In this document: piece by piece, positions 1,357 to 44,004 of the stretch
Position numbering within the stretch: the stretch's first letter is position 1
Layout of the letters: every line of letters starts with the position of its first letter
Assembly (NCBI GenBank): GCA_964630905.1
Contig: CAZVWR010000004.1
Coordinates: 6,775-70,774, forward strand
DNA length: 64,000 nucleotides
Origin: an uncultured Spirochaetales bacterium
Lineage (GTDB): Bacteria > UBP6 > UBA1177
Direction: 5' to 3'
Notes under the pieces: generated by a model
Databases searched by the model: none
What the model saw: only the letters and a program-made list of their open reading frames with translations
What the model was told of the DNA's origin: nothing
Position numbers and translations under genes: made by a program

Positions 1357-2994
1357 TCAGTAGATCACAAGAAAGCTTGAAAGTGGTATCTCAGCACGAT
1401 ATCCGGATGGATCTGTTACTACCGGAGTATAGTTTTCACCGTTAAGAAATGCTGAATATGAAAATGTGTTAAGCTCTCCCTTTTTAATTTTTTCAGTAAC
1501 ATCAATGTTGATAAGTTTCACATCCTGTCCGGGACACCATCCTGCTCTACCGAAAGGCCATGAGCCGTACTGATTCGGAACGGTTCCTTCGTTTACCAGA
1601 TCAAAACATCCGCGCGAAGTCCCTGCGTTTTTGAAATCAATCTCAAAAGGGGTTCCGTTCACAGTGAAAACCGATTCAAATTTACAGAATTCGGCACAGT
1701 TTTCCTGTTCTGAACCATTACCGTGCCCTGTTATATAAGCGGCAATAATGATTTTTTCGAATGATGAAGGAATTTCTGTTTTTATATCTTCCCACTGATC
1801 GTTATATGTTTCGTCAAACTGTTTCGTTCCTGAAAAGAGAGGGAATATGGATACCGGTTTTTCAGATGAGCTTTCTTTAATGTAGATAAAGTCAAGGTAA
1901 TTGACATACTGGTCTCCGGCAACTGTAAATCTGAAATAGTTCTTTCCGGATTTAAGAAGAGAAATAAGCGGTGTTATATCTGTCAGCCATTTTCCGCTTC
2001 TGCCGTAAGTAGTAATCCATCTTCCGATTTCTACGGTACAATTTTCAGAAGTTTCGTCATCACACAGAAAGAGATGCTGCAGTCTGTCCCATTCGCATGA
2101 TTTCTGTGATTCGCATATCTGTTCAAGTGAAATGAAAAGCCTCCCTTTTTCAGAAAATTCAGGTATTTGTGCAGAAAATAAAATGTTTTTCTCCCAGCCA
2201 TCTTCAGGAAATTTAACCCCGTCAATGCCTTTGATGGTTGTTGAATTTTCATGGTTTGAAGAGATAAAATCTTCAAGACCGTATTCATAGTTGTAAAGTT
2301 CCGCTTCCTTATACAGAAATTCAAAGCGGGGATCAGATGATGATGATTCCCAGCTGTGAAAACTTCCGGATGACCGGATCTTCTGAAAACGGTCGATTCC
2401 CAGAAAGAAATCAGAATATTTCTCAAGCCATTCCTTGAACCATGAATCAATTTCACGGGCAGGCTTAGTTGTGATGTGCACCCTTTGTTTCATTTGAGGT
2501 CCGCCGCCGATCTCAAGAGAATTTTCAATGTTTTTCTTTAACTGTCCGATTCTTTCGGTGAATGTTTCGGCAGTTCCGTCAACAAGGAAAAAATAATGGG
2601 TGTTTTGAGGAGTATTGTCGAAAAGTCTGATAAGGTCTGTTTTCCATATGGCAGTGCTTTCAGAGTTAGATGCCCTGTAGAAAATGAAAATGTAGTTTTC
2701 ATCTTGTGATCTGTTTCCGGCAAAGTTCCAGTCTCCTGTTTCAAGAGGAAGAGTAAAGTCACCGGCGGTGTCTCCGAATAAAATACCGTAAGGACCTTTT
2801 TCAAGGTTGTTTTCGTCTCCATCAGTATCAGACTGTTCATTATCAACTATTTCATCTGTTATTTCATTATCTAATAACAGAGTGTCAGTGTCAGAAACAG
2901 CATCATTGTCCGGAATATCTTTGTTCGATGTTGAGCATGCAAAATAGATTGGCAAAAGAAGCAGAACATAGATGATCTTGAGGTTTTTTTTCAT
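1357..2994 (-). CDS. Lipoprotein with a PNGase F (peptide-N-glycosidase F) C-terminal-like domain.
   Basis: The lipoprotein signal MKKNLKIIYVLLLLPIYFAC is at the internal Met; the track's upstream extension is unlikely. The C-terminal region ITGHGNGSEQENCAEFC...SRGCFD...FGRAGWCPGQDVKLINIDV...FSYSA aligns with PNGase F (ISGWGH...GCAEWC...DRAGWCPGMAVPTRIDV...FSYEY). Confidence 0.7.
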   Translation of the reverse strand: MKKNLKIIYVLLLLPIYFACSTSNKDIPDNDAVSDTDTLLLDNEITDEIVDNEQSDTDGDENNLEKGPYGILFGDTAGDFTLPLETGDWNFAGNRSQDENYIFIFYRASNSESTAIWKTDLIRLFDNTPQNTHYFFLVDGTAETFTERIGQLKKNIENSLEIGGGPQMKQRVHITTKPAREIDSWFKEWLEKYSDFFLGIDRFQKIRSSGSFHSWESSSSDPRFEFLYKEAELYNYEYGLEDFISSNHENSTTIKGIDGVKFPEDGWEKNILFSAQIPEFSEKGRLFISLEQICESQKSCEWDRLQHLFLCDDETSENCTVEIGRWITTYGRSGKWLTDITPLISLLKSGKNYFRFTVAGDQYVNYLDFIYIKESSSEKPVSIFPLFSGTKQFDETYNDQWEDIKTEIPSSFEKIIIAAYITGHGNGSEQENCAEFCKFESVFTVNGTPFEIDFKNAGTSRGCFDLVNEGTVPNQYGSWPFGRAGWCPGQDVKLINIDVTEKIKKGELNTFSYSAFLNGENYTPVVTDPSGYRAEIPLSSFLVIY

Positions 2995-3036
2995 GATAAG
3001 TACCCGAAATATATCAATTATTAAAGTTGGAAACAA

Positions 3037-5538
3037 TCAGAACAAAAGTACAGAACAACCACCACTGGTTTTTTTCTTTATACCCTCAACACGGCAGTTC
3101 GGATCACAACCGTCAAAAGGTTCTGTATTACCGTCATCACACTGTTCTCCGTATTCAAGCTCACCGTTTCCGCAAACATTCTCTGCTGTTGAATTACCAG
3201 AATTACCTGAGTTGCCGGAATTACCTGAGTTGCCAGAATTCCCTGAGTTACCAGTATTTCCTGAATCTCCGGAATTTCCGGAGTCGCCTGAGTTACCTGA
3301 GTTACCTGAGTCCCCAGAATCACCAGAGTCACCAGTACACTTTGATTTATCCCAACCGGAACAATCTTTTAAACAAGTTGCAGTTCCAATAGAGGGTGTG
3401 TCTGGAAGTTTGCTGCAAGCTATTGTGTTTCTATCACAAATTTCATCTCCCTCTAAGATTCCGTTGCCGCATGATGCGATGATTTCAGTTCCTTCCGGAA
3501 GTATCTTGTCTGAAATACATTCATATCCGGACCGCACATCATTGTAATCACATTTTGCTATGCATTTGCCATCGTAACATTCTACACCGGTATTGCCATT
3601 GTAACAATCTGAATTGTTTTCACAGTTTGCAGAACAATAACCATCGGTCCATCCAGTGTCGGTAATACATTTTGATGAAGCGGCAGTATTAAGACATTCA
3701 CTTTCGTCTGAACAAGGGTCGCCTGTTTTTCCAATGCCGCCGGTATCACATCCGTTATCGATCGTTCCATCGCAATCGTCATCCCTGTCATACCCGTCAC
3801 CGAAACAGAGGTCTACGTCCGCTGTAGAGATGCATTCTCCGCAAGTTCCATTCTTTGCACCGTTTACCATGGCGTTTGCATCAACAATTCCAAATCCGTA
3901 ACACGGAGAGTGATCCTTGGCGTTTTCAAGCCAGTTTGCAGAATCAGGTTGTATTGTTGACCAGCCGCCTTTGGAACATGTTTTTGAAGTTTTAGCGGCA
4001 CTTGCTTTGACACAGTTTATTATTCCTGAAAAGGTCATGCTTGTATTAGCCGCTATCATTAATGCCACAGCTCCCGCGGCAACAGGTGTGGCTGCGCTTG
4101 TTCCTGCAAACCTGCTTGTATAGTTAAGATCGCTTAAACTGTCTCCGTCATATCCTGTTGAATAGTTGTAGCCATAAGCCCCCTGTATATCTGTTGTGTA
4201 ATTTCCTGCTCCCGCACTGACATCTATTTCAGAACCGAAATTGGAATAGCTTGCCATTGATCCGTTTGATTCAAGAGCACTTATCGTGAGCATATCATCA
4301 TCTTTGAGGAATCCCTGATAGGATGTGTTGCATCCGTCATTTCCGGCCGCCCAGAGAAATACAGTTCCTTTCCCGCCTCGACCGTTTATTCTTCCATAAT
4401 CTACAGCAGCGGACTGGTTGTTGTCTGCAGGTGAAGAGATACAGTTTCCGTAATTGTCTTTCCCCTGAGGTCCCCAACTGTTGCTGACAACCCATGCGCC
4501 CTGATCGACTCCGTACTGAAGAGCATCTTTTATTGTAGTAGGATACAGATATGTGCCTCCGATAAGTCGTATCGGAATGATCGGACATCCCCAGCATGCG
4601 GCGGCGACCCCGAGACTGTTGTTTGTTTTTGCAGCTGCAAGTCCGGCACATGATGTTCCGTGTGGAACTCCTTCATGATCATCCTGAGCCTTGTTGGGGT
4701 TGGGGTCGTTGTCTTTTGATATGAAATCATATCCTGAAAGTACATTCAGATCGGGATGGGTCGTGTCAACACCGCTGTCGACTATTGCTATTTTTGCATC
4801 TTTTCCTGCACCTGTTTCAGTGTCCCAGGCATATTGAGCAAGGATCTGAGTGAGATGCCACTGATTGCTGTAATATGTGTCGTCAGGTGTGGTGGTCTTG
4901 AGTTCCATGTGCCAGAACCAGTTTGGCTGAGCCCATCTGACAAGATCTTTTTCTACGAGAGAGTTGGCAACAGCAAAAGGGTCTTTTCCTACTGATACAG
5001 AAACAGTATAAAAATCAGGATCATTTACTCCAAGTTCAATAACTTCAAGTCCGTAAGTCTTCAATATTTCATCTCTTTTTTCAAATGATGTGTGTTTGGA
5101 GAATTGAATGTTCATTCTGCCATCAAGAACCAGAGGGTCTTTCGAGTAATAAGTCACAACGGGCCATGAAGGAATCCCTTTTGAAGCAAGAATATTTCTA
5201 ATATTGATCCAGTTAGACCTGTCGGCATTTGCAAGCTGAATCCTGTGTGCCTTGACATGGCCTTCACTTATGACCACTTCCCTGATCAGGCTTGTAACAG
5301 GTATCCCCTGAAAATCAATATGCTGGAGAGAATTCAGATTTACTGAAAAAGGAATTGATATCATATCGTAGATCTGCTTCAAATATTGAGGTCTGCCCTT
5401 GAAATAATAGAATGTGTCATATTCTTTCCCGTTTATTTTCACCTGTTGTCCTATTGACGGTTTTGAGAATTCGCTGCCGGAAACAGAGAAAACCACAAGG
5501 ATTGATAACAATAAGATAAAAATCATTTTCTTTAACAT
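3037..5538 (-). CDS. Secreted subtilisin-like serine protease (S8) with a C-terminal Cys-rich repeat region and a G-[ND]-S tripeptide array.
   Basis: The Asp/His/Ser triad motifs are AIVDSGVD, HGTSCAGLAAA and GTSAATPVAAGAVAL. The signal peptide MLKKMIFILLLSILVVFSVSG follows a GGAGAGGG ribosome-binding site, so the start is at the internal Met (5538). The C terminus has CGNGELEYGEQCDDGNTEPFDGCDPNC and CGNGILEGDEICD, the same pattern as the Myxococcus cysteine-rich repeat. Confidence 0.85.
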   Translation of the reverse strand: MLKKMIFILLLSILVVFSVSGSEFSKPSIGQQVKINGKEYDTFYYFKGRPQYLKQIYDMISIPFSVNLNSLQHIDFQGIPVTSLIREVVISEGHVKAHRIQLANADRSNWINIRNILASKGIPSWPVVTYYSKDPLVLDGRMNIQFSKHTSFEKRDEILKTYGLEVIELGVNDPDFYTVSVSVGKDPFAVANSLVEKDLVRWAQPNWFWHMELKTTTPDDTYYSNQWHLTQILAQYAWDTETGAGKDAKIAIVDSGVDTTHPDLNVLSGYDFISKDNDPNPNKAQDDHEGVPHGTSCAGLAAAKTNNSLGVAAACWGCPIIPIRLIGGTYLYPTTIKDALQYGVDQGAWVVSNSWGPQGKDNYGNCISSPADNNQSAAVDYGRINGRGGKGTVFLWAAGNDGCNTSYQGFLKDDDMLTISALESNGSMASYSNFGSEIDVSAGAGNYTTDIQGAYGYNYSTGYDGDSLSDLNYTSRFAGTSAATPVAAGAVALMIAANTSMTFSGIINCVKASAAKTSKTCSKGGWSTIQPDSANWLENAKDHSPCYGFGIVDANAMVNGAKNGTCGECISTADVDLCFGDGYDRDDDCDGTIDNGCDTGGIGKTGDPCSDESECLNTAASSKCITDTGWTDGYCSANCENNSDCYNGNTGVECYDGKCIAKCDYNDVRSGYECISDKILPEGTEIIASCGNGILEGDEICDRNTIACSKLPDTPSIGTATCLKDCSGWDKSKCTGDSGDSGDSGNSGNSGDSGNSGDSGNTGNSGNSGNSGNSGNSGNSGNSTAENVCGNGELEYGEQCDDGNTEPFDGCDPNCRVEGIKKKTSGGCSVLLF
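3191..3334 (-). repeat. Coding tandem repeat of about 16 copies of 9 bp, encoding (G-D/N-S/T)n inside the subtilase gene.
   Basis: The plus strand shows ccagaattacctgagttgcc-type 9 bp periodicity. It is translated as GDSGDSGDSGNSGNSGDSGNSGDSGNTGNSGNSGNSGNSGNSGNSGNS. The alternate frames give the spurious ELPELP and ATQVTQ ORFs. Confidence 0.7.
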
Positions 5539-5722
5539 AACCCTCTCCGTATAGCTATTAAAAAACAAAACTATTAATTAGAGCAAAACAGGTTCCCGAC
5601 TTTTTTGTTTAATCATTACAGTCGCATAAAACGGATTAAACATTTCAGGACCAGCAACAGTTAAATTATACGCACATCCATATAAAAACCAAGCTCAAAA
5701 ATATAGACGGCCCCGAATTCTT

Positions 5723-7401
<1,679 letters not shown>

Positions 7402-7426
7402 GAATCTCTTTTTAGTATCTCAACGA

Positions 7427-7455
7427 TTGACTCTCTGACAATTCAGTGATAATAT
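7427..7455 (+). promoter_or_regulatory. Candidate promoter of the znu operon.
   Basis: TTGACT (7427-7432), a 17 nt spacer, then TAATAT (7450-7455). The ribosome-binding site AGGAGG is at 7472-7477 and the ATG at 7482. Confidence 0.4.
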
Positions 7456-7481
7456 CCAAACAGTTTTTTTCAGGAGGAAAA

Positions 7482-8387
7482 ATGTTCAGACCGGCACTAT
7501 GTTTTTTAACCTTTTTAATGATTTTTAATTTGTCCTGCAGCTCAGAAAATATTGAAAGTGGAAAAAGCGGAGTTGTGAATGTGACAGTCAGTATCCTGCC
7601 GCAGAAATTCATTGTTGAGCGGATTGGAAAAGAGAAAGTGAAAGTAAATGTGATGGTTCCTCCTGCAACGAGTCCCGAAATTTATGAACCGGGGCCTGTA
7701 AAAATGGCTGAACTGAAAGATTCTGCAATATATTTTCTCATCGGAATGCCGTTTGAAAAGAATGCTTTTGAAAAGATGAAAAGTGAGTTCAGCAATGTCA
7801 GGTTTACTCAAATGCAGAAAAACATTGTTTTTCGAAAAATAGAAGGAGGACATGATCATAAAGAAGAGAGCGGATTCCATGAGGAAACTTACGATCCGCA
7901 TATCTGGCTTGATCCGCTTTATTTAATTGTTATATCAGATAACACAGTTTCAGAACTGATTAAAGCAGATCCGGCAAATAGAGAATTCTATATAAAAAAT
8001 CTTCTTGAACTGAAAAAAGAGCTCCAGTTGTTGTATGATGAACTGCTTGATGTTTTTAAGGGAAGCGAAAGGAAGAGCTTTGTGATCTACCATCCTGCCT
8101 GGGGTTATTTTGCCGATAGATTCGGGCTGAAACAGATTCCTGTGGAAATTGAAGGTAAAGAGCCGTCAGTCGCTGAAATGGCAAAATTGTCTGAATTTAT
8201 AAAAGAAAATAAAGTGAAAACCATTTTTCTTCAGGCCCAGTCATCAGAAACGGTTATAAATTCTCTTGCATCGGAAAAGGGAATACAAATAAAAATGATT
8301 GATCCTTTAAAAGAGAATGTTGTCGAAAATATTAGAGAATCTGCACTGTTAATAAAAGAGGGACTTGTATTTGCAAAGCATAATTGA
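7482..8387 (+). CDS. znuA: Zinc ABC transporter substrate-binding lipoprotein (ZnuA/TroA family) with a His-rich loop.
   Basis: Signal peptide plus lipobox FNLSC. It has the DPHIWLDP signature and a His/acidic loop GGHDHKEESGFHEE. The start is set at MFRPAL after the ribosome-binding site; the track start at 7446 is upstream of the ribosome-binding site. Confidence 0.8.
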   Translation: MFRPALCFLTFLMIFNLSCSSENIESGKSGVVNVTVSILPQKFIVERIGKEKVKVNVMVPPATSPEIYEPGPVKMAELKDSAIYFLIGMPFEKNAFEKMKSEFSNVRFTQMQKNIVFRKIEGGHDHKEESGFHEETYDPHIWLDPLYLIVISDNTVSELIKADPANREFYIKNLLELKKELQLLYDELLDVFKGSERKSFVIYHPAWGYFADRFGLKQIPVEIEGKEPSVAEMAKLSEFIKENKVKTIFLQAQSSETVINSLASEKGIQIKMIDPLKENVVENIRESALLIKEGLVFAKHN

Positions 8388-9102
8388 ATTTCAAAAAGTT
8401 AATTTCTCATACGGAAGGAACGAAGTTCTCAAAGATATCAATATGACTGTGAAAGAAGGAGATTTCTTTGCAATAGTAGGTCCTAACGGAGGAGGAAAAA
8501 CAACAATTCTGAGGCTGATATTGGGCCTTGAAAAAGATTTCAAGGGTGAGATCAAGGTTTTCGGAAAAGCCCCGAGCAATAATGACAGAAAAAAAGGATA
8601 TGTGCCGCAATTTTCCAACCATGACAAGATGTTTCCTATAACGGTCAGGGATGTGGTTCTTCAGGGTTTGATCGAACCGGGATCAGTATTCCCTTTCTAC
8701 AGCAGGTCATGCAAGTCCAGGGCGTTGAATGTAATGGAAAAACTCGGCATTTCCGATAGAGCTCAAGACCGTTTTGGCGACCTTTCGGGAGGGCTTAAGC
8801 AGAGGACATTGATCGCCAGAGCTGTAATAAGCGATCCGGAGCTTATTCTGCTTGATGAGCCGGTTGCAAGCGTTGACAGTAATATTGAAAAAGATATTTA
8901 TGAAATGCTTGTTGAGCTGAATAAAACAATGACAATAGTTATGGTTTCGCATGATCTTGGATTTGTTTCAAAATATGTAAATAAAGTCGGTTGCGTGAAT
9001 AGAACTTTTGTGTGCCATGACTCAAAGGAGCTTTCTTCCCATGATGTTGACAGTATGTATCACGGGGAAAGTATAATGATAAACCATAAGTGCGGAATTT
9101 GA
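8365..9102 (+). CDS. znuC: Zinc/manganese ABC transporter ATPase.
   Basis: Walker A GPNGGGKTT, signature LSGGLKQR and Walker B LILLDEP. It overlaps the znuA 3' end by 23 nt. Confidence 0.8.
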   Translation: MYLQSIIEFQKVNFSYGRNEVLKDINMTVKEGDFFAIVGPNGGGKTTILRLILGLEKDFKGEIKVFGKAPSNNDRKKGYVPQFSNHDKMFPITVRDVVLQGLIEPGSVFPFYSRSCKSRALNVMEKLGISDRAQDRFGDLSGGLKQRTLIARAVISDPELILLDEPVASVDSNIEKDIYEMLVELNKTMTIVMVSHDLGFVSKYVNKVGCVNRTFVCHDSKELSSHDVDSMYHGESIMINHKCGI

Positions 9103-9927
9103 ATGAGTTTTTTTGAAGCTTTGTTGAAATATGGTTTTTTGCAGAATGCTGTTGCAGCGGCTGTTCTTGCATCAATTTCATGCGGTATTTCAGGAACTTT
9201 TGTGTTTGTGAACAGGATAACTTTCATTGCGGGCGGTATTGCCCATGCGGTTCTCGGTGGAGTCGGAGCGGCGGTCTATTTCGGATTTTCCCCTTTTACC
9301 GGAGCAATTGTTACAGCAATTCTGTTTGCCATAGTTCTGGGGATGATAAAGTTCAAGGCGTCAGAACATGAGGATACTGTTATAGGCGCGTTGTGGGCGA
9401 CCGGAATGTCAGCAGGAATAATATTTATCTATCTTACACCGGGATATTCAGTAAATCTGAACAGTTATCTTTTCGGCAACATTCTTCTTGTATCAAAAGA
9501 TGATATTGCGGGGCTGTTTTTTCTTGCTGTAACGGTTCTCACAACTGTCACTATCTTCTACCGTCAGTTCAAATCGGTCAGTTTTGACATGGAATTTTCA
9601 ACTTTGAGGGGTATTAAAAGTCTTTTCATCTACACAGTAATGCTTTCGATGATAGCTCTGACCGTTGTTGTTCTGATGAAAGTTGTGGGTCTGATCCTTG
9701 TCATAGCGTTTCTTTCGCTTCCGGCGGCAACAGCCGCAGTTTTTACAAACAGGATCGGCAAAATAATTTTATTATCTTCCATATTAAGTTTCATGTTCAG
9801 TTTTACAGGTCTTTTCATTTCATACAGGTTTGATCTTCCAACAGGTGCGGTTATAACGACAGTTTCCGGATTTGTTTATTTAATATCAATAATTTCAGGT
9901 AGATACTATGCAAAACTTTTTAAATAG
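9103..9927 (+). CDS. znuB: ABC-3 family metal transporter permease.
   Basis: The 8-TM ABC-3 pattern with ISCGISGTFVFVNRITFIAGGIAHAVLGG. It abuts the znuC stop. Confidence 0.8.
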   Translation: MSFFEALLKYGFLQNAVAAAVLASISCGISGTFVFVNRITFIAGGIAHAVLGGVGAAVYFGFSPFTGAIVTAILFAIVLGMIKFKASEHEDTVIGALWATGMSAGIIFIYLTPGYSVNLNSYLFGNILLVSKDDIAGLFFLAVTVLTTVTIFYRQFKSVSFDMEFSTLRGIKSLFIYTVMLSMIALTVVVLMKVVGLILVIAFLSLPAATAAVFTNRIGKIILLSSILSFMFSFTGLFISYRFDLPTGAVITTVSGFVYLISIISGRYYAKLFK

Positions 9928-11173
9928 TCTTCTTGCTGTATTTATGGAAATGTCCCCTTATCTGCTCTTGGGATTTTTTATTGCGGGGATACTTAACGAG
10001 CTTTTCAAAGGGACAAAGCTGAAAAAATTTATCGGAGGGAGCAATTTTCTTAGTATTGTGAATGCTTCCATTCTCGGTGTTCCGCTTCCTCTCTGTTCTT
10101 GCGGAGTTATACCTACCGGTGTTTCTCTCCACAAAAGCGGAGCGTCAAAGGGTTCTGCGGTTTCTTTTATGATATCAACTCCGCAGACAGGTGTTGATTC
10201 CATACTTGTCACATGGTCGCTGCTCGGTTTGCCGTTTGCACTTTTGAGACCTGTCATTGCATTCATAACCGGTGTTGCAGGCGGAGTTATGACCAGCGTG
10301 CTTGAAAAAAATGCCACTGAGTCTAACAGGATCAGCACTGATGAAATGAAAGAAGAGGACAAAAGGTCTTTTTTACAGAAATTTTATTCCGCAATGAAAT
10401 ATGCATTTGTCGATTTTCTTGATGACATTTCTCTGTGGCTTTTTGTCGGGCTTATAACTGCGGCACTTATTTCTGTAATAATTCCGGAAGGTTTTTTCAC
10501 AACTTATGTGGGGAACAACTATCTGAGCATGCTTATTGTCCTTATTGCTTCGGTTCCTCTTTATGTCTGTGCAACAAGTTCTGTTCCGATAGCAGTTGCT
10601 CTTATGCTGAAAGGGCTGAATCCGGGGGCGGCACTTGTTTTTCTGATGGCAGGCCCTGCAACAAATGCCGCAACTGTTCTTGTGATAGGAAAAACGCTCG
10701 GGAGAAAAGCTCTTTTCAGTTATCTTTTTTCAATTATAGCAGGAGCTTTAGTGTTTGGCGCCATAATTGATAATTTCCTGCCGGCAGAGTGGTTTAAGCC
10801 TCAATTGATGCAATCTCACTCTCATCATCATGGAGGAATAAATTATTTTTATCTTATATCGTCAGTTATTCTTGCCATATTGCTGCTTATGAGTTTTGTC
10901 AGATATTTGAAAAGAAGAAAAGAATCTTCTCATTGTCATGACAAAGAGTGCTGTTGTGAAAATGCAAATGAAACTGAAACAACTGTAATTCAGGTCGAGG
11001 GAATGACATGCAGTCACTGTGCGGCAAATGTAAAAGCAGGGATATCTGAAGTTCAAGGTGTTAAGAATGTGGAAGTAGACCATCATACAGGAAGAGTTGA
11101 AATAACAGGCACTGATATTGACATGGATGAAATAAAAAAAGCAGTTGAATCGAGGGGTTATAAAGTCGTATGA
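9908..11173 (+). CDS. Predicted permease (DUF318/ArsP-like, SO_0444-type) fused to a C-terminal heavy-metal-associated (HMA) domain.
   Basis: N-terminal permease motifs include LPLCSCGVIPTGVSL. The His/Cys-rich linker is HSHHHGG...CHDKECCCEN. The HMA motif GMTCSHCAANV has the expected ferredoxin-like spacing. It overlaps znuB by 20 nt. Confidence 0.75.
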   Translation: MQNFLNSLLAVFMEMSPYLLLGFFIAGILNELFKGTKLKKFIGGSNFLSIVNASILGVPLPLCSCGVIPTGVSLHKSGASKGSAVSFMISTPQTGVDSILVTWSLLGLPFALLRPVIAFITGVAGGVMTSVLEKNATESNRISTDEMKEEDKRSFLQKFYSAMKYAFVDFLDDISLWLFVGLITAALISVIIPEGFFTTYVGNNYLSMLIVLIASVPLYVCATSSVPIAVALMLKGLNPGAALVFLMAGPATNAATVLVIGKTLGRKALFSYLFSIIAGALVFGAIIDNFLPAEWFKPQLMQSHSHHHGGINYFYLISSVILAILLLMSFVRYLKRRKESSHCHDKECCCENANETETTVIQVEGMTCSHCAANVKAGISEVQGVKNVEVDHHTGRVEITGTDIDMDEIKKAVESRGYKVV

Positions 11174-13995
11174 TTAGAAATGTCGCTGCATTTTTAATTG
11201 TTACGGTTTTTTCGATCCAGGTAATTTCAGCTCTTGAAAAAGTTAAGTTCCGAAAACATGAAACGGAACATCAGGTGCTCTATTTTTCATCCAATCTTGA
11301 CGATTCGGTCATTCCACGGCTCATTAAACAGGCGGTAAAGTCGGAAGAGTTCATCAAAGATCTTTACGGCTGGGTTCCTTCAAAAAAAATAATCACAGTT
11401 TATGACAGAGAGACCGACACAGCAAACGGATGGTCAAGAAGTTATCTTAAAAATGTAATATATCTATACACTTATCCTCCTGAAAGATATTCGACACTTT
11501 CAAGTTATACAAGCTGGGAACAGGGACTCCATGTTCACGAATACACCCATTCCGTTCAGATAGGGAATACGAAAGGATTCCCGAAGTTCATCAACACAGT
11601 TTTCGGCAATCTCTATTTTCCCGGCGGAATGATTCCGAGATGGGCTCTTGAAGGTGCGGCGATATACAGCGAATCGCTCATTGAAGGGAAAGGGCGGCTC
11701 AACAGTCCGCTTTATAAGGCTCACTTCGACTCTTTTTTTCTGAAAGGGAAAGAACTTTCACTTGGTGAACTTTCAGGCATTTCCGATCACTGGATGGGGG
11801 GAGGTCTCCCATATCTTTACGGAACTTATTTCTATGCGTATCTTGTTGAGAAGACTGGAAAAAAACAGCTTGCCGCTTTTTTTGACGAATTGTCGGACGA
11901 TGCTTTTCCTTTTCTTGCCAACAGAGCCGCAAGAACCACTCTCGGCTCATCTTTAACCGATCTGTACAGGAAATTCATAAGGGAAAAAAGAGATGAATTA
12001 AGTTCCAAAGTGCGGGACTCTTCGGGAGAACACGGTTCAAAAGAGCGATTTCATTCAGTATTTGTCGATCTCAATTCAGATGGTTATGTGTTTTCGGGTG
12101 AAAAAATATCAAAAAGAGCTGTTTACAGCTTCAACGAAGGTGAACTTAAAAAACTTTCATCTTTTCCGTCACACGAATCATTTTCTAAAAAAGATGAAAA
12201 ATGTGTTTTTCCCTTAAATATCAGGCATGAAGACAGGTACTACAGGAATGAGATCTTTTATGCGGATTTAAAGAAGCGGTCTATAAAAAAGATAACAGAA
12301 AATGAAACTGCAGGCGAGGTTGTTTTCGGATCTGACAACGATATTTATTACACTTCGTTCAGAGATGGAATAAACCGGATAACCCATTTAAAACTTGACG
12401 GAACTGTGATAAGTGAATGGGATTTCAGAGAGCTTGACTCAATTTTCAGCATCTCTTTGTCAAGTGACGGAAAGAAAATGGTTTTTACCGGAAATCTTTA
12501 TAATTTTGAAAAGAACATATTCATTTTTAATACTGAAAACAGTGAGTTGACTGAAATAAGGATTGACGGTGACCAGTATTCGGTCTACTTCAGAAATGAT
12601 GAAGAGATCATTTTTTCAAGCGAAAAGAACGGCAGAATTGTCCCGATGTCACTTAATTTTAAGGAAAAACGGTTAAAACAGCTTCACAGGCCCTCTTCTG
12701 TTGCAATTTTTCCTAAAGTTATAAATGACGAGATATTTTTCATGGCTTTTGACAATGACGGCTACTATCCGGCATGGCAGAAGATCGAAAACATCGACCT
12801 TGGAAAAGTTCCGGATGGTGTTTTTGTAACAGTTGAAAGAAAAGGTGAGGAATTTGAGAAAGTTACACTTAAGGATGCAAAATTTTATGAAGGGATGTTG
12901 CCATCTCTGATAATTCCTGACTATCAGGGTTCTGTTAATTCCCACACAATAGGGTTTACAGTATGGGGCGAATCAAATGATCAGGAAAGGTATTATGACA
13001 TTTCCTATTACAAAACTTTCGGTGGAACTGGAAGACATTTTGCAATGATCAACTATTTTGATCAAACGGTATGGCCGGGGTTCAGATGGTATTTTTCATA
13101 CAGCAGGGAAGATTCAAAAACAGGCGGTATTTACAGAACTGATGTGTCGTATGACAGATTCAATTCCGGCATCTCCCTGTTTTCTTCAACGTCAAGCCCT
13201 GTTTTCATCCTTCCTTCAAAGATAGTGAACATGAATCACAGCATCCGTTCGGGTCTCGGTTTGAGCGGAACTGACATGAATGTGAAACAATTGAAAGACC
13301 CGCTTGACATAACTCCGCCTGAAAATGACCGGCTTGACATAACTGCCTATTTTTCATACGGATTTTCGTTTTCTTTCAATCCTGGATCATATTATCTTTT
13401 CAGTGATATGGAAAGGACATCATTTTCTTTTCCGATGACAATTTACAGATCTTTAATGGGTGATAGCAGATCGCTGGTGTTCTCTCCTTCGATGCAGTTG
13501 AGCTTTCTCATCCTTCCAAACGGGAAACTCGGATTTATCACAAGGAATGCGCTTTATATGAGATTCCTGACCGACAACTATTTTCTTCTTGGTGGAGACG
13601 AACTTGACATTGATATTCTGAACCTGAACACATTTATTTACGGCGGATCATCAAGCGTAACCGTCAGAGGATACAACTATGGAGCCGCAGGAGGAAAGCA
13701 TGTCTACCACTCAAACAACGAACTGAGATTCCACCTTTTCTCGATAAGTCAGGGGTTTAACACATTTCCCCTCATGTTCAAAAATGTTCAGGGAGCCCTT
13801 TTCTTTGACATCGGAAGCGGCTCTCCCGACATTAACATGTTTGATGACAAGTTCATCGCCGGAATCGGTGCAGAACTAAAACTTTATTCAGTGTGGTGGT
13901 ACCGCGTCCCCATAATCTTTTCGTTCGGAACCGCCTACGGATTGACAAAAAGCGGACAACTCAATTTCTATTTTTCTTTAGGCAATTCTTTCTGA
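11170..13995 (+). CDS. Outer-membrane protein: signal peptide, HExxH zincin-like module, PD40/TolB-like beta-propeller and Omp85 (BamA/TamA)-type C-terminal barrel.
   Basis: The signal peptide is MIRNVAAFLIVTVFSIQVISA. HVHEYTHSVQ is followed about 35 aa later by WALEGAAIYSE, a gluzincin-like spacing. Repeats such as SDGKKMVFTG and DGINRITHL look PD40-like. The terminal strand LNFYFSLGNSF matches the Omp85 C-terminal signature. The ATGA overlap indicates translational coupling with the upstream gene. Confidence 0.7.
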   Translation: MIRNVAAFLIVTVFSIQVISALEKVKFRKHETEHQVLYFSSNLDDSVIPRLIKQAVKSEEFIKDLYGWVPSKKIITVYDRETDTANGWSRSYLKNVIYLYTYPPERYSTLSSYTSWEQGLHVHEYTHSVQIGNTKGFPKFINTVFGNLYFPGGMIPRWALEGAAIYSESLIEGKGRLNSPLYKAHFDSFFLKGKELSLGELSGISDHWMGGGLPYLYGTYFYAYLVEKTGKKQLAAFFDELSDDAFPFLANRAARTTLGSSLTDLYRKFIREKRDELSSKVRDSSGEHGSKERFHSVFVDLNSDGYVFSGEKISKRAVYSFNEGELKKLSSFPSHESFSKKDEKCVFPLNIRHEDRYYRNEIFYADLKKRSIKKITENETAGEVVFGSDNDIYYTSFRDGINRITHLKLDGTVISEWDFRELDSIFSISLSSDGKKMVFTGNLYNFEKNIFIFNTENSELTEIRIDGDQYSVYFRNDEEIIFSSEKNGRIVPMSLNFKEKRLKQLHRPSSVAIFPKVINDEIFFMAFDNDGYYPAWQKIENIDLGKVPDGVFVTVERKGEEFEKVTLKDAKFYEGMLPSLIIPDYQGSVNSHTIGFTVWGESNDQERYYDISYYKTFGGTGRHFAMINYFDQTVWPGFRWYFSYSREDSKTGGIYRTDVSYDRFNSGISLFSSTSSPVFILPSKIVNMNHSIRSGLGLSGTDMNVKQLKDPLDITPPENDRLDITAYFSYGFSFSFNPGSYYLFSDMERTSFSFPMTIYRSLMGDSRSLVFSPSMQLSFLILPNGKLGFITRNALYMRFLTDNYFLLGGDELDIDILNLNTFIYGGSSSVTVRGYNYGAAGGKHVYHSNNELRFHLFSISQGFNTFPLMFKNVQGALFFDIGSGSPDINMFDDKFIAGIGAELKLYSVWWYRVPIIFSFGTAYGLTKSGQLNFYFSLGNSF

Positions 13996-18227: not shown

Positions 18228-20984
18228 ATGAACACTTTTTTTAGAATTGTTCTGATTTTTCTAATGTTTTTTTCAATTTCCTGTGAAAAGGAAAAGCTGG
18301 AAAGAGATGATGAAGCTCTGAATGATGATGCAATTGAAAATGATGAAAATATGTCTGATGATGATCAGATTTTTGCCTGTGCTGATGAATGGGAGAAGAC
18401 GGAACTGATCGAAGATGTGAGTATGATGTTTGATTTTGATATAAAGGTGGAGACCGGGAAGTGGAACTGGGAAAAAAAGGAAGAATTTGATGAACTTGTT
18501 TTTGAAGGAGGTCCATCAAGAGTTCTTGGTGTCCTGAATGACGGAAGTCTGATTCTGAGTGATTATTATAATACTCTGGAAGGATATTCGATCCTTGCAG
18601 TTCTACACCCTGACGGAACAACGAAGCGGTATATTCTTGAAATTGACAAGGGAAAGAAAATAACTTTCGGCATCGGAACAATTGATACATTCAAACCATT
18701 TGTTTTCTGGCCGGGCTATTATTTTGATAAAGATCGGCAGGAAATCCTTATTTCTGTTACAATGATGACAAAACTAAAGTCTCCATACAGCGATGAATAT
18801 TCAGCGAGACCTTTTATAATTAAAATTGATGCGTCAGGCGGTTTGTTATACATGTCATGGGAAAATGACGGAACAAGCATCTGTTCTAATCTGACCCAGA
18901 CTGATGACAAAATAGTACTTTTCTGCTCGCACTGGATTCCTGATCCTGAAATATATGAAGAAACAGGCAGGATAAATGCTGAAATAAATGTAATAAACGG
19001 AAACACCGTTTACAGAAAAATAATGAAGTCTGAATATATTGCGTTGACAGAAAACAGTGCAGGCAGTAAAAATGGTGAGATATATTCATTTTATAAAGAA
19101 AGCACATTTACTGAAACTGAGGCGATAGATGTTGGTTTTATCTACAGTTTTGATGAAAAAGACCTCTGCCTTAAAACAGAAGGACCTGAAGATTATTTTG
19201 ATGAACTGGCTTTTGACGGTTCCCCATACGAAGGATATAGCATGATGTATCCTTATAGTTTTATTAAAAAAGGAGATTATTCCATTGTCGGGGGAGTCAG
19301 AACTAAACTTGAACACCTTGATTATGAACAGATTCAAAGCTTTAATCCGTCATTATATGTTGACCATTCTGACAATGACACAATTTTTTCTTTCGGAATA
19401 AAGGATCCGAGATTTGAGGTTGGAGAAACACAGGCGATGCACCTTGTTTCTGAGCCGATCATTTTCAGTAAAGAAAACAGCAATTTATTGTTTGTGTCAT
19501 TGATATCGACTTTTGATATGGAAGATGAAGGACAGGACTGGATAACTCCTGAACTTATTGAGAAAACAGATTATTTTTACAGGCCTTCAATTGCGGCAGT
19601 TGATATAGAAAAAAAAGAGGCATATATCAGGAATTTCTTTATGGGAGATCTTGTCGGCTTTTTTGGAGAGGCGTTTCCCTTTGAAGAGTATATTTATTTT
19701 GTAGTAAATTATGGTCAGGAAAGGACTCTGTACCGGATGCCCGAATCATGGCTTATAAATGAAAATGCAAGAGCGAAAGAGAGCCGCTTCTTTATTGAAG
19801 ATATTGCAAAATTGCGGGAAGCTGTATTGAAAGAACTCAAACCGTTTGAAACGGTTTCTTCAGGGAAAAAGCACACATGTGCAGTGGATGAAGAAAAAAG
19901 GGTGATCTGCTGGGGAGACAATTCAGAAGGACAGCTTGGAAACATTGTCGGGTACACAAGACCTTATCCTGACCTTATATTTATGGACGGAATTCTTAAG
20001 GATAAAACAGTTGAAATTATGAAAACAGGCTCTGCCCATGCATGTGTTGTTGCGGATGATAAAAGAATTTACTGCTGGGGCAGTGATGATGCCGGAAAGC
20101 TTGGAATAGGTGACGGTAATTATAGTCTTTATCCTGTATCAGTGAAATATGATGGAGTTCTTAAAGACAAAATAATCGTTGATGTTGCTCCGGGAACAAG
20201 TCACACCTGTGCAATTGATGAAGAGGGGAAAGCTTACTGCTGGGGCAGAAACACTCTTGGCAGTGTTGGAACTGAAACGGATCTTCAGTTTGTTTATGAA
20301 CCTGTTGTTGTTGATATGAGCGGAGTTTTAAAAGATAGAAAAATTATAGAAATATCAAGCGGTTCTGCGCATACATGTGCAGTTGCCTATGATGGCGGGG
20401 TTTACTGCTGGGGATCGAATGACAGAGGTCAGCTCGGAGACGGAAAAGGTGGTACTCAGGGTGAAATAGGCGGCGGACTTGGATCTCACAGCAAATTTCC
20501 TGTTAAAGCGGAAACAGCGGAAGGAAAATATTTAAAAGTTTCAGCAGGTTATGATCATACATGTATTTTGAATGACAAAGGGAAAATATTCTGCTTCGGG
20601 AACAATGCAAACGGTCAGCTTGGAGACGGCACGACTGAAATGAGGTTGACGCCTGTTGCACTGAATTCAGACAAAGTTTTCAAATCTGTTTCAGCGGGAT
20701 CGGAACATACCTGTGCAGTTGATGATAAAGATGAAGCATACTGCTGGGGAGGAAACATTGTCGGACAGCTCGGAACAGGCAGTAAAGAGAGTTCTCTAAT
20801 TCCTGTAAAAGTAAAATATGCGACAGAAACCAAAATCAAATCAATAAGTTGCGGCCACAGACACACATGTTCAGTCACCACTGAAGGAGTTGTCCACTGC
20901 TGGGGCTTGAACAGTGACGGGCAGATTGGCAACGGCACTTATGAAGATTCACTAACTCCGAAAGAGATCAAAGCGAAAGAGTAG
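18228..20984 (+). CDS. Lipoprotein with a C-terminal seven-blade RCC1-repeat beta-propeller.
   Basis: Lipobox LMFFSISC with the ribosome-binding site AGGAGG. There are seven repeats of the type GxxHTCAVxxxGxxYCWGxNxxGQLGxG (e.g. HTCAVDEEKRVICWGDNSEGQLGN). Confidence 0.75.
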   Translation: MNTFFRIVLIFLMFFSISCEKEKLERDDEALNDDAIENDENMSDDDQIFACADEWEKTELIEDVSMMFDFDIKVETGKWNWEKKEEFDELVFEGGPSRVLGVLNDGSLILSDYYNTLEGYSILAVLHPDGTTKRYILEIDKGKKITFGIGTIDTFKPFVFWPGYYFDKDRQEILISVTMMTKLKSPYSDEYSARPFIIKIDASGGLLYMSWENDGTSICSNLTQTDDKIVLFCSHWIPDPEIYEETGRINAEINVINGNTVYRKIMKSEYIALTENSAGSKNGEIYSFYKESTFTETEAIDVGFIYSFDEKDLCLKTEGPEDYFDELAFDGSPYEGYSMMYPYSFIKKGDYSIVGGVRTKLEHLDYEQIQSFNPSLYVDHSDNDTIFSFGIKDPRFEVGETQAMHLVSEPIIFSKENSNLLFVSLISTFDMEDEGQDWITPELIEKTDYFYRPSIAAVDIEKKEAYIRNFFMGDLVGFFGEAFPFEEYIYFVVNYGQERTLYRMPESWLINENARAKESRFFIEDIAKLREAVLKELKPFETVSSGKKHTCAVDEEKRVICWGDNSEGQLGNIVGYTRPYPDLIFMDGILKDKTVEIMKTGSAHACVVADDKRIYCWGSDDAGKLGIGDGNYSLYPVSVKYDGVLKDKIIVDVAPGTSHTCAIDEEGKAYCWGRNTLGSVGTETDLQFVYEPVVVDMSGVLKDRKIIEISSGSAHTCAVAYDGGVYCWGSNDRGQLGDGKGGTQGEIGGGLGSHSKFPVKAETAEGKYLKVSAGYDHTCILNDKGKIFCFGNNANGQLGDGTTEMRLTPVALNSDKVFKSVSAGSEHTCAVDDKDEAYCWGGNIVGQLGTGSKESSLIPVKVKYATETKIKSISCGHRHTCSVTTEGVVHCWGLNSDGQIGNGTYEDSLTPKEIKAKE

Positions 20985-21817: not shown

Positions 21818-23530
21818 TTAGTGAGGAATAAGACCAAGAAGTATGCCTGCCGCAATAGCAGAACCGATAACACCGGCAACATTCGGTGCCATTGCATGCA
21901 TGAGAAGATGGTTTTCAGGGTCTTCCTGTCTTCCAAGGACCTGAGCGACTCTTGCACTGTCGGGAACTGCTGAAACGCCCGCACAGCCGATGATCGGATT
22001 GATCTTATTATCTTTCTTAAGGAAGAGATTGATGAATTTTGCAATAAGGACTCCGCCTGCTGTTGAGAACATGAACGAAAGTGCTCCGAGAGCAAATATT
22101 TTGACTGATGCAGGGGTCAGGAATGTCTGTGCGCTTGTTGAAGCACCGACAGTAAGACCTATCAATATTGTTACAACATCAATAAGAGCAGTGCTTGCAG
22201 TTTTTGAAAGTCTGTCTGTAACTCCCGATTCTTTCAGTATATTTCCAAGAAGAAGCATTCCAATGAGGGGAAGTCCGCCAGGAGCGATCATTGCACAAAC
22301 TGCAAAAGCGACTATCGGAAAAAAGACCTTTTCCCTTTTTGAAACGATCCTCGGAGCTTTCATTCTGATAAGTCTTTCCTTTTTTGTGGTAAGAAGCTTT
22401 ACAACAGGAGGCTGGATGACAGGGACAAGTGCCATATACGAATATGCAGCTATTGCGATAGCACCCAGAAGATGAGGAGCCATAAGGCCGGTTGTAAATA
22501 TAGCCGTCGGACCGTCAGCTCCGCCGATTATTCCGATAGATGCCGCTTCCTGAATTGAAAAACCAAGGAACATCGCTATCAGAAATGCAACGAAAATGCC
22601 GAGCTGAGCTCCACCGCCGAGCAGAATAAGTTTGGGGTTTGCTATCATGTAGGAAAAGTCGGTCATTGCACCTATCCCTAGGAATATCAAAGGCGGATAT
22701 ATACCCTTCAGTACTCCGAAATAGAGATAGTTCAGAACTGATCCGGGATCATAAATGCCGATCTGAACTCCGGCGGCTGTGGGAATGTTGCCGATAAGTA
22801 TTCCAAATCCGATAGGAAGGAGAAGAAGCGGCTCATAATCCTTTGCTATTGCAAGAAAAATGAAAATGAACGCAACAAGCATCATAATGACATTTCCGAG
22901 AGTAATGTGTGCAAAAGCAGTAGTGTTGAAAAACTTTGTTATAAAGCTTTTATTTTTTTCAACATATTCTCCAAGCGGACTTGAAGACCTTAGTGAAAAA
23001 TCAATGAAAAGAGGTGTCACCTGATAAGTGCTCTGGAAGTTTTTGATGGATATTGAATTGGTGACCATTACATCGCCCACGCTCTCTCCAGATATCATGA
23101 CAGGGTATCTGCCGGGGTCTGATTTGAAATTGATAAATGAAACACCGTTGTCGGCAACGATGACATCTGTATACTTAAAAGATTTCTGTTCGTTGTCGGA
23201 AAATGTTGCAACAACTTCATAAGTGTTTTCTGCAGGTTTGAACAGATCAATTTCGTCGGAATCGGGAAGAACAGCGCTCTGGCCTGTTATTACAAGATAG
23301 CTTCCCGGCTCTGTCTTGTCTTTTTCAGTTGAATAGTTGTCAGACACTATTGCACCGAATTCAGTTCTTTCCTTCCACTGCCCGGCAACAAAATATCTTA
23401 CATTAAGTTTTACAAGAGCTTTGTTTTCAAAAACCCCCGTAAAGTTTTCAGTTGCGCCGTCTTGTGCGTAAATGACAAAACCCGAAAAGAGAATTATCAG
23501 CAGCAGTAAGGATCTTTTTAAAATATTCAT
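21818..23530 (-). CDS. mmdB: Na+-translocating decarboxylase beta subunit (OadB/MmdB family) with a signal-peptide-bearing N-terminal extension of about 200 aa.
   Basis: The core LAIAKDYEPLLLLPIGFGILIGNIP...GIGAMTDF matches OadB/MmdB. The N-terminal 200 aa (MNILKRSLLLLIILFSGFVIYAQ...) is extra relative to canonical beta subunits of about 375-430 aa. Confidence 0.85.
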   Translation of the reverse strand: MNILKRSLLLLIILFSGFVIYAQDGATENFTGVFENKALVKLNVRYFVAGQWKERTEFGAIVSDNYSTEKDKTEPGSYLVITGQSAVLPDSDEIDLFKPAENTYEVVATFSDNEQKSFKYTDVIVADNGVSFINFKSDPGRYPVMISGESVGDVMVTNSISIKNFQSTYQVTPLFIDFSLRSSSPLGEYVEKNKSFITKFFNTTAFAHITLGNVIMMLVAFIFIFLAIAKDYEPLLLLPIGFGILIGNIPTAAGVQIGIYDPGSVLNYLYFGVLKGIYPPLIFLGIGAMTDFSYMIANPKLILLGGGAQLGIFVAFLIAMFLGFSIQEAASIGIIGGADGPTAIFTTGLMAPHLLGAIAIAAYSYMALVPVIQPPVVKLLTTKKERLIRMKAPRIVSKREKVFFPIVAFAVCAMIAPGGLPLIGMLLLGNILKESGVTDRLSKTASTALIDVVTILIGLTVGASTSAQTFLTPASVKIFALGALSFMFSTAGGVLIAKFINLFLKKDNKINPIIGCAGVSAVPDSARVAQVLGRQEDPENHLLMHAMAPNVAGVIGSAIAAGILLGLIPH

Positions 23531-23543
23531 TTTTTCCTCTGTT

Positions 23544-23981
23544 CTATCCTATGGTTAAAAGCGACTGGTGTTCACGGACATTGTCCCCTTCTTTTACCTG
23601 GATCTCTTTTACTGTTCCGGCAACTGTGGAGTTAATGTCGTTTTCCATTTTCATTGCTTCCATCGATATAACCTTCTGACCTATTGAAACGGTGTCACCC
23701 GGTTTAACAAGTATTTTCAGGATAAGTCCGGGCATCGGAGCAAAAACACTGCTGACACTGGCTGAAGATGTTTCAGAAACTGCAGGCTGTACCGGCTGTT
23801 TTTCTAAAGGAGCGGCCGCTTTTCTCGAAATTACCGGAATGACGGGGGGCTCGGTTTCAGTATATTTCACACCGACATCATATGTTTTCCCGTTCACGGT
23901 CACTTTGGCTCCCTTTGAGTTGAAATCCTTTATTTCGACACTGTAGTCTTTACCGTTTATTTTCATTTCATACTTTTTCAT
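23544..23981 (-). CDS. mmdC: Biotin carboxyl carrier subunit of methylmalonyl-CoA decarboxylase.
   Basis: Biotinyl domain with the EAMKM motif (ISMEAMKMENDI) and a Pro/Ala-rich linker. Confidence 0.8.
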   Translation of the reverse strand: MKKYEMKINGKDYSVEIKDFNSKGAKVTVNGKTYDVGVKYTETEPPVIPVISRKAAAPLEKQPVQPAVSETSSASVSSVFAPMPGLILKILVKPGDTVSIGQKVISMEAMKMENDINSTVAGTVKEIQVKEGDNVREHQSLLTIG

Positions 23982-23991
23982 TATGTTCTCC

Positions 23992-24435: not shown

Positions 24436-24444
24436 GATCCCTCC

Positions 24445-25986: not shown

Positions 25987-26004
25987 GCTCCAAATTCTGA
26001 AATA

Positions 26005-27341: not shown

Positions 27342-27736
27342 TATTTTTTCACATTTTCCTTAATGAATTTAATGAATTCCTCTGACGGAGTTCCAGGAGT
27401 GAAAACCGCTTTAACCCCTTGTTCCTTCAAAAAAGGGATATCGCTTTCAGGAATTACTCCGCCGCCGAAAACGAGAATGTCCTCAGCCCCTTTTTCCTTT
27501 AACAGTTCAACAACTTTCGGCAGAAGTGTGTTGTGCGCACCGCTTAAAATAGATAAGCCGACTGCATCGACATCTTCCTGAACAGCCGCGTTGACAATTG
27601 CTTCAGGAGTCTGACGCAAACCTGTGTAAATTACTTCCATACCGGCATCTCTTAATGCTCTTGCAACAAATTTTGCACCCCTGTCATGACCATCCAGTCC
27701 CGGTTTTGCTATTAAAACTCTTATTTTCTGACTCAT
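27341..27736 (-). CDS. Methylmalonyl-CoA mutase small subunit with the B12-binding domain.
   Basis: [31 protein letters not shown] carries the DxHxxG cobalamin-binding motif. Confidence 0.85.
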
Positions 27737-27746
27737 TTTTTCCTCC

Positions 27747-37491: not shown

Positions 37492-37502
37492 TGGAGTAGG
37501 TC

Positions 37503-43993: not shown

Positions 43994-44004
43994 GGGAGGT
44001 TGTC

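Follow-up and report, generated by a model that had tools for sequence, protein, structure and literature searches.

A probable divergent member of the POTRA-less WD40-like subfamily of Omp85 proteins in an uncultured Spirochaetales bacterium

The 64,000-nucleotide stretch of DNA analyzed here (referred to below as the window; contig CAZVWR010000004.1, positions 6,775 to 70,774 of the forward strand, assembly GCA_964630905.1, from an uncultured Spirochaetales bacterium) encodes a 941-residue protein that raises the question of what an Omp85-type protein does with an enzyme-like module in place of POTRA domains, and whether such an arrangement had been seen before. A preliminary description of this locus had read the protein as a gluzincin-like module, a TolB/PD40 propeller and an Omp85-type barrel with no POTRA, and regarded the architecture as undescribed. 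Profiles, motifs and predicted structures upheld the three-module reading: they describe a protein composed of a signal-peptide-like start, a gluzincin-fold domain, a six-bladed TolB-type propeller and a 16-strand Omp85 barrel. The claim of novelty had to be abandoned. By profile and motif comparison, the protein very probably belongs, as a divergent member, to the WD40-like Omp85 subfamily, which lacks POTRA, was defined in 2014 (PMC4104836) and has a listed member that aligns with the protein from end to end. The architecture is thus already catalogued, and what is new here is one divergent member.

The gene and its N-terminus are located as follows:

11170..13995, + strand: complete gene, ATG start, 941 codons and a stop; the ATG overlaps the stop codon of the upstream permease::HMA gene (ATGA)
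11170..11232, + strand: signal-peptide-like N-terminus, residues 1-21 (MIRNVAAFLIVTVFSIQVISA), read from the sequence, with a putative cleavage site after ISA; a low-confidence helix in the model

The N-terminal segment, which is followed by LE, reads as a Sec signal peptide with its n-region, h-region and AxA-like c-region, in line with the signal peptide noted in the preliminary description, and the same reading found no lipobox Cys in the N-terminus of the 941-residue protein. When scanned as a single sequence, the window protein gave no Pfam or NCBIfam match that reached threshold in any of its three domains; because all matches were sub-threshold, family-wide scans were needed. The alignments used were A1 (the window protein, 39 full-length relatives, P0073 and P0074), the broadened alignment A2, the window family profile A3 and A6 (81 relatives with 14-37% identity to the window protein); a further alignment, A7, is cited for individual residues. 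A full-length AlphaFold2 model was obtained from 41 sequences (predicted local distance difference test score, pLDDT, 80; predicted template modeling score, pTM, 0.82), and its strands were assigned by DSSP.

In the classification of Heinz and Lithgow (Front Microbiol 2014, PMC4104836), the Omp85/TpsB superfamily, whose defining feature is a C-terminal 16-strand barrel of the BamA/TamA/Sam50 type, comprises ten subfamilies. Three of these lack the POTRA domains that are common, though not universal, in the superfamily: noNterm, 'Metallo' (in fact a PF00149 phosphoesterase) and 'WD40-like'. The Pfam content of the WD40-like cluster consists of combinations of PF01103, PF07676, PF00930 and PF10647 (Table S2), and Table S3 of the same study lists, for approximately 100 members, Phyre2 matches to BamA/TamA (4k3b, 4c00) and TolB (2w8b, 2ivz) together with a 'best aminopeptidase hit' (1z5h F3, 4kxd, 3qnf ERAP1, 4ar1 collagenase). 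A search with a Gallionellaceae homolog of the window protein (L044) led to a protein of Sideroxydans lithotrophicus ES-1 (P0286, identical to WP_013029888.1 and UniRef100_D5CSQ4, 'Surface antigen (D15)'), and D5CSQ4 is present in the 2014 WD40-like list (Tables S1 and S3). The hhalign comparison of the A3 profile with D5CSQ4 had a probability of 100 and an E value of 4.6e-49 over 894 columns (7-962 against 1-933). In addition, the combination of Pfam domains given in Table S2 recurred in 48 distant representatives of the family (PD40 in 34, DPPIV_N in 14, Omp85 in 11 and Gmad1 in one). The assignment of the window protein to the WD40-like subfamily follows from the full-length match to D5CSQ4 and the shared Pfam mix.

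The window protein and the subfamily, as represented by D5CSQ4, have the same modules in the same order, similar lengths (~930-1000 residues) and no POTRA. On the other hand, the window protein is only ~17-19% identical to proteobacterial WD40-like members, and, unlike members of the cluster, it is too divergent for Pfam thresholds in all three domains. It comes from an uncultured lineage whose relatives are labelled UBP6, Sumerlaeota or 'Spirochaetales' metagenome-assembled genomes (MAGs), and its position at the end of a znuACB-permease::HMA operon is found in this lineage only, in contrast to the subfamily elsewhere.

How common are such proteins? A word-indexed search retrieved 74 relatives from digester, sediment and ruminant-gut MAGs, every one annotated as 'hypothetical protein' and, apart from a few fragments, full length; the corresponding search with A2 added nothing beyond the close family and drew in generic propeller proteins. 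When 1.84 billion cluster representatives were searched exhaustively with a profile, 39,399 sequences matched at E<=1e-3; a threshold of E<=1e-30 left 4,955, each standing for a cluster at 50% identity. Most of the top 150 (E<1e-106) were ~900-1050 residues long and aligned over their whole length, and ten distant representatives whose names were inspected were again all 'hypothetical protein'. In a one-genome-per-species scan, 27 full-length relatives occurred in uncultured lineages labelled UBP6, Sumerlaeota or 'Spirochaetales', and approximately 25 in Betaproteobacteria and Gammaproteobacteria, including the cultured Hylemonella gracilis and Arsukibacterium ikkense. The proteobacterial open reading frames (ORFs) were 920-1060 residues long (999 in H. 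gracilis), with one exception (Arsukibacterium, 844 residues), and had HExxH near residue 130-180, LRGY near 830-890 and a C-terminal G(R/S)(A/S/G)F; some of these relatives matched Pfam Omp85. Looking up the Hylemonella and Rhizobacter ORFs by exact sequence returned no match, probably due to differing start codons. Judged from these searches, the peptidase-propeller-Omp85 architecture is very widespread across many diderm phyla.

The next question is whether the N-terminal domain has the features of an active peptidase. Its relevant parts are:

11239..12024, + strand: gluzincin-fold (clan MA) metallopeptidase-like domain, residues ~24-285, predicted mixed beta/alpha fold
11536..11550, + strand: putative HExxH zinc-binding/catalytic motif (H123, E124 and H127, in HVHEYTH), invariant in A1, A2, A3, A6 and A7
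11641..11655, + strand: WALEG, residues 158-162, with Glu161 as the putative third zinc ligand, invariant in A1, A2 and A6; aligns with WLNEG of the M1 structure 3cia
11809..11823, + strand: PYLYG, with Tyr215 as the putative transition-state-stabilizing Tyr, invariant in A6 and above 90% in A7; aligns with PYVKG of 3cia

The preliminary description had pointed out the HExxH motif and a downstream Glu with gluzincin-like spacing, and both observations held. H123, E124, H127, E161 and Y215 were present without exception in the 81 full-length relatives of A6; the first four were also invariant in A1, as were R833, F878 and D880. Since this invariance extends over relatives that share no more than 14-37% identity with the window protein, the zincin motifs are under strong selection, and the conservation pattern argues for a retained active site. 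Glu161 (in WALEGAAIYSE) lies 34 residues past His127, giving an HExxH-x33-E spacing. In the AlphaFold2 model, H123/E124/H127 and E161 are located in two predicted helices (residues 116-132 and 157-171, respectively), and structure comparison of the N-terminal domain placed the predicted zincin fold close to M30, M1 and M9 zinc peptidases, in agreement with what had been proposed for this region. The N-terminal profile gave a marginal match to an M1 sequence in the PDB (3cia, E 0.31), in which WALEG was aligned with WLNEG and PYLYG with PYVKG. We take the Glu of WLNEG and the Tyr of PYVKG to be the third-ligand Glu and the catalytic Tyr of M1 enzymes.

Membership in family M1 itself was considered and rejected. 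M1 aminopeptidases have an HExxH-x18-E spacing and an upstream GxMEN exopeptidase motif; the window protein has x33 rather than x18, and a conserved DTANG (residues 83-87; DxANG in the family) instead of GxMEN in the equivalent upstream region. It also lacks the M1 N- and C-terminal domains. What it shares with M1 (LTA4H, APN, ERAP1 and tricorn-interacting factor F3), with M30 (hyicolysin and lugdulysin) and with M9 collagenases is HExxH, the xxEG third ligand and the Tyr in PY.xG. By this HExxH plus Glu pattern and by its predicted fold, the module is gluzincin-like and falls outside the M1 family. A second HExxH (HETEH, residues 30-34) was dismissed as a chance occurrence; beyond the close family it is not conserved, and it lies in N-terminal beta-strands. 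Additional residues, G175 and R176 (in the stretch 173-176, 11686-11697) and E168 (11671-11673), were invariant or nearly so family-wide; possible roles include binding of a substrate carboxylate or positioning of ligands.

The same residues bear on a non-catalytic explanation, in which the zincin-like domain binds peptides or partners without hydrolysis and the protein serves as a TolB-like envelope tether. The TolB propeller is a protein-protein interaction module, and the Peptidase_MA_2 match of the window protein is sub-threshold, both of which would suit a scaffold. Without catalysis, it is difficult to account for the strict invariance of four catalytic-type residues and Tyr215 among relatives this divergent, and we consider a pure scaffold very unlikely.

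The middle module corresponds to the PD40/TolB-like blades noted previously:

12049..12834, + strand: six-bladed TolB/PD40-type beta-propeller, residues ~294-555, from the AlphaFold2 model and TolB profile and structure matches

The model contains 24 strands in this region, arranged as six four-stranded blades with pLDDT of about 90. TolB was the best match of the propeller in both structure and profile comparisons (229 of 397 TolB residues aligned), and TIGR02800 (propeller_TolB) was matched by 10 of 36 relatives. A search of PDB sequences with the full-length profile likewise found TolB, with BamA appearing only at E 3.3. The six-bladed PD40 propeller is thus shared with TolB, the differences being that the N-terminal alpha/beta domain of TolB is missing and that the propeller is covalently joined to a peptidase and a barrel. 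An identity with TolB of the Tol-Pal system was rejected: only the propeller matches, a zincin lies upstream of it, and the neighboring genes are of znu, HMA, leucine-rich repeat (LRR) and RCC1 types rather than tolQRA or pal.

The C-terminal module and the segment that precedes it were resolved as follows:

12835..12906, + strand: short linker, residues 556-579, with invariant Pro578 (A1 and A2 alignments, AlphaFold2 model)
12907..13992, + strand: Omp85-type 16-strand beta-barrel, residues 580-941 (362 residues): 11 strands, loop 6 and 5 strands (AlphaFold2 model)
13663..13674, + strand: VRGY motif, residues 832-835, in the loop 800-844 corresponding to Omp85 extracellular loop 6; R833 invariant in A1 and A2
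13801..13815, + strand: FFDIG, the Omp85 FxDxG motif, residues 878-882, on the second strand after loop 6 (strand 13); conservation of D880 and F878
13960..13992, + strand: C-terminal strand LNFYFSLGNSF, ending in Phe and beta-signal-like; aligns with the C-terminal YFNMGQSF of the Omp85 structure 9ccg

In the structural model, the C-terminal 362 residues form a predicted Omp85 16-strand barrel: eleven strands were predicted within residues 580-799 and five within 845-939, separated by a 45-residue loop. This order matches the layout of BamA, with loop 6 between strands 11 and 12 and FxDxG on strand 13. Foldseek comparison of the barrel with solved structures gave Sam50 (9.5e-9), BamA (2.9e-8) and TamA (3.9e-7) as the best matches. 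The expected motifs of the superfamily are (V/I/L/M)RG(F/Y/W) in extracellular loop 6 and FxDxG on strand 13 (PMC11358297). A barrel-only family profile that included proteobacterial relatives matched BamA (8xnb) at E 4.1e-4 through LRG...E.R and F.D.G; VRGY was aligned with LRG of BamA and LRGY of 9ccg, and FFDIG with FADYG of BamA. The alignment with 9ccg, the second Omp85 found, continued as far as its C-terminal GQSF, which bears out the earlier comparison of LNFYFSLGNSF with Omp85 terminal strands. F878 and D880 were both invariant in A1 and at least 90% conserved in A2; D880 was invariant in A3 as well. PF01103 (Omp85) was matched by 11 of the 36 full-length relatives (best 4.7e-5) and 11 of the 48 distant representatives (best 5.9e-11). 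The Omp85-type C-terminus proposed in the preliminary description, including the 16 strands anticipated from structure prediction, is therefore well supported by the predicted fold, the two motifs and the Sam50/BamA/TamA matches.

The reported absence of POTRA was also borne out. No POTRA Pfam match was detected in the window protein, nor among the 36 relatives or the 48 distant representatives, and the N-terminal 260 residues are occupied by the predicted zincin fold. The mere ~24 residues between the propeller and strand 1 (556-579) leave no space for a POTRA domain; Pro578 and Pro583 are invariant around this junction. Compared to the insertases BamA, TamA and Sam50, the window protein shares the predicted 16-strand barrel, (V/L)RG(Y/F) in loop 6, FxDxG on strand 13 and a C-terminal aromatic residue, and differs in the lack of POTRA and in carrying an enzyme-like domain and a propeller N-terminally.

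What might such a protein do? With moderate confidence, we favor a periplasm-facing zinc peptidase that is anchored in the outer membrane and acts on unfolded envelope polypeptides. The protein would be exported by the Sec pathway and its signal peptide cleaved, after which the C-terminal 362 residues would fold as the 16-strand barrel in the outer membrane, with loop 6 (VRGY) predicted from the motifs and fold to dock on FFDIG of strand 13. The N-terminal 555 residues would most likely hang on the periplasmic face. Given their invariance and the predicted fold, His123, His127 and Glu161 may bind zinc, with Glu124 as the general base and Tyr215 stabilizing the transition state. Propellers in tricorn protease, DPP-IV and prolyl oligopeptidases limit access to the active site to unfolded chains or peptides. 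By analogy, the six-bladed propeller could be a substrate-binding or gating platform beside the zincin that admits only unfolded chains or peptides. The peptidase itself would shorten or break down unfolded polypeptides of the envelope on the inner side of the outer membrane, and its substrates may include stalled or misfolded outer-membrane-protein precursors, lipoproteins or imported peptides.

A number of points weigh against this proposal. Peptidase_MA_2 remained below threshold, PF01103 was not found in the window protein at E<=1, and the confidence of the model is low in the loop 6 region (pLDDT 30-56 over residues 800-850) and in parts of the barrel. No gene neighborhood that would hint at substrates or partners was conserved among 26 related loci. 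The literature holds no experimental study of any member of the WD40-like subfamily (PMC11116518); the activity, metal content, substrates and topology of these proteins are all inferred.

The placement of the N-terminal domains deserves separate consideration, as the preliminary description had suggested a surface protease as an alternative. The host is a diderm, since the window encodes a TonB-dependent receptor and a FadL-like protein. Loop 6 must be external and follows strand 11, so that strand 1 should start at the periplasmic face and, with a linker of 24 residues, the domains that precede it should be periplasmic. The best experimental precedent is PlpD (PL-Omp85), in which, as in the window protein, an enzyme-type domain precedes an Omp85 barrel; no other Omp85 of this kind has been tested, and the N-terminal domain of PlpD stays periplasmic (PMC11116518). 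PlpD differs in having a patatin lipase and one POTRA and in forming dimers, whereas the window protein has a zincin and a propeller and no POTRA.

In the surface-display model, the barrel would export its own peptidase-propeller passenger in a type V-like manner for extracellular digestion of proteins or peptides as nutrition. Heinz and Lithgow raised this idea for the separate 'Metallo' subfamily by analogy with PlpD (PMC4104836), a precedent since overturned by the periplasmic location of the PlpD passenger (PMC11116518). The window is rich in secreted-type proteins, such as an S8 subtilase with collagen repeats and a PNGase F-like protein, and several organisms have more than one entry in the 2014 table (judging by accession prefixes), which would fit diversified substrates. 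Against these stand the strand parity of the model, which puts the N-terminus in the periplasm, opposite loop 6; the ~24-residue linker, which enters strand 1 directly after the conserved prolines; and the lack of POTRA, the element that TpsB translocators use. Moreover, export would require a folded propeller and a 260-residue zincin to pass through a barrel with intact loop 6 lid motifs. Surface display is thus the less likely topology, and on the whole we regard this model as rather unlikely.

The barrel features raise another alternative, a fused machine for assembly and quality control, in which a BamA/TamA-like insertase with a lateral gate would be joined to a propeller serving as a BamB-like scaffold and a zincin acting as a BepA-like degrader of stalled substrates. 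The lid-lock motifs are retained in the barrel, whose last residue is aromatic as in BamA, and BepA, an M48 zinc protease, works at the beta-barrel assembly machinery (PMC13655028). Yet there are no POTRA domains to receive substrates, the propeller is six-bladed and TolB-type in contrast to the eight-bladed BamB (PMC11358297), and the zincin is M1/M30/M9-like rather than M48. The comparison is one of analogy, and we regard this alternative as unlikely. A more elaborate version, which we consider quite unlikely, is a self-contained quality-control device, in which the barrel would engage the beta-signal of nascent outer-membrane proteins, the propeller would capture the stalled or misfolded ones and the gluzincin would destroy them, the whole being tied in the window lineage to a zinc-uptake operon. 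If true, it would represent a one-polypeptide counterpart of BamA, BamB and BepA in thousands of diderm lineages, and in the window lineage a zinc enzyme would be produced along with its metal supply.

The link to zinc uptake brings up the genes upstream:

7446..11173, + strand: co-oriented genes for a ZnuA-like binding protein, an ABC ATPase, an ABC-3 permease and an ArsP_1 permease::HMA (Pfam); kept only in L001 and L002

The start codon of the barrel gene overlaps the TGA of the preceding gene (GTATGATT). This preceding gene, an ArsP_1-type permease with a C-terminal HMA (9908-11173, + strand), closes a znuA-znuC-znuB block and overlaps both of its neighbors. A promoter-like site was observed upstream of znuA, and inspection of 7380-7500 by eye revealed no palindrome that could be a Zur box. 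Both the ATGA overlap and the znuACB plus permease::HMA context were present as the preliminary description had reported. The two loci that retain znuACB and permease::HMA upstream are those with the most similar proteins, L001 (95% identity) and L002 (73%); L002 keeps the permease::HMA arrangement with a protein that is 70% identical. The linkage was absent at every locus with <=65% identity for which upstream sequence was available, comprising at least 15 loci with 8 kb of such sequence together with those from Betaproteobacteria. When flanking ORFs from 26 related loci were clustered all against all, no gene family was shared beyond sub-clades. The fusion itself recurs in full-length relatives across lineages, and the metal genes accompany it in the two closest relatives only. 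Because of this restriction, the association with metal transport is a local arrangement rather than a family property, and the proposed co-transcription with znuACB would likewise be particular to the window lineage.

The neighborhood had led to the suggestion that the protein is an outer membrane component for the acquisition or efflux of zinc or another metal, co-expressed with ZnuABC and the permease::HMA. The ATGA coupling, the co-oriented znuA-C-B block with its promoter-like site and the same arrangement in the 73%-identity relative would agree with such a role; the absence of the linkage from all loci at <=65% identity with upstream sequence speaks against it. In addition, the protein shows neither a plug nor the fold of a TonB-dependent receptor, Omp85 barrels do not act as solute pores, being closed by loop 6, and the sole zinc connection at the family level is the need of the enzyme itself for zinc. 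We consider a part in the zinc economy highly improbable. A ZnuD-type TonB-dependent zinc receptor, which would have a plug domain, a 22-strand barrel and a conserved link to the Zur/znu regulon, was rejected as a candidate, as no Plug or TonB_dep_Rec Pfam match was found, the barrel is Omp85-like and the znu linkage occurs only in the 95% and 73% relatives.

On the downstream side, a conserved run of genes was noticed in rumen-MAG relatives (L009, L010, L011, L014, L015, L016 and L024; for example, L009 10918-14841). It encodes a CAP-domain protein, DUF7478, a mannose-6-phosphate isomerase-like cupin and a nucleotidyl transferase, and looks like ordinary sub-clade synteny of housekeeping-type genes with no obvious functional tie.

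Although the architecture is not new, the family is large (the 4,955 representatives at E<=1e-30), and these Omp85 subfamilies were still described in 2024 as having 'not been well characterized' (Hanson et al. 2024, PMC11116518). A Leptospira paper of the same year summed up the subfamily as having 'divergent WD40 and peptidase domains' (PMC11358297). The family-wide invariance of the HExxH, Glu and Tyr residues strengthens the case for real enzymes anchored by an Omp85 barrel. Cultivable members, namely Sideroxydans lithotrophicus (D5CSQ4), Hylemonella gracilis and Arsukibacterium ikkense, offer experimental entry points.

Several other features of the window were observed. Collagen triple-helix repeats are present in three predicted proteins (3037-5568, - strand; 5788-7401, + strand; and 58807-59946, + strand), a density unusual for 64 kb; one of the three is fused to an S8 subtilase and DUF4215. 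A 559-residue protein (1357-3036, - strand) has the N- and C-terminal domains of PNGase F, which suggests deglycosylation of host or environmental glycoproteins. A 918-residue protein (18228-20984, + strand) contains an RCC1-like seven-bladed repeat domain (E 9e-101), and its gene comes after those for a 720-residue LRR-like protein and a 620-residue protein with no Pfam match, so that eukaryote-like repeat proteins appear to be clustered around this position.

Other ORFs in the window gave no Pfam match at E<=1e-5. One of them (51496-56997, + strand; 1833 residues) lies just upstream of a FadL/Toluene_X-like outer membrane protein (57196-58797). Three consecutive ORFs (42803-46275, + strand; 396, 348 and 407 residues) are located directly downstream of the TonB-dependent receptor (40761-42806) and may form an uncharacterized receptor-associated cassette. 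Two ORFs of ~425 residues overlap almost fully on opposite strands; the one on the + strand (37503-38771) is a malic enzyme, and its counterpart (37488-38765, - strand), which has no match, is presumably spurious. Finally, a methylmalonyl-CoA pathway cluster (21818-29408, - strand) encodes an oxaloacetate/methylmalonyl-CoA decarboxylase beta subunit, a carboxyl transferase and methylmalonyl-CoA mutase, and is consistent with a propionate-forming anaerobe.

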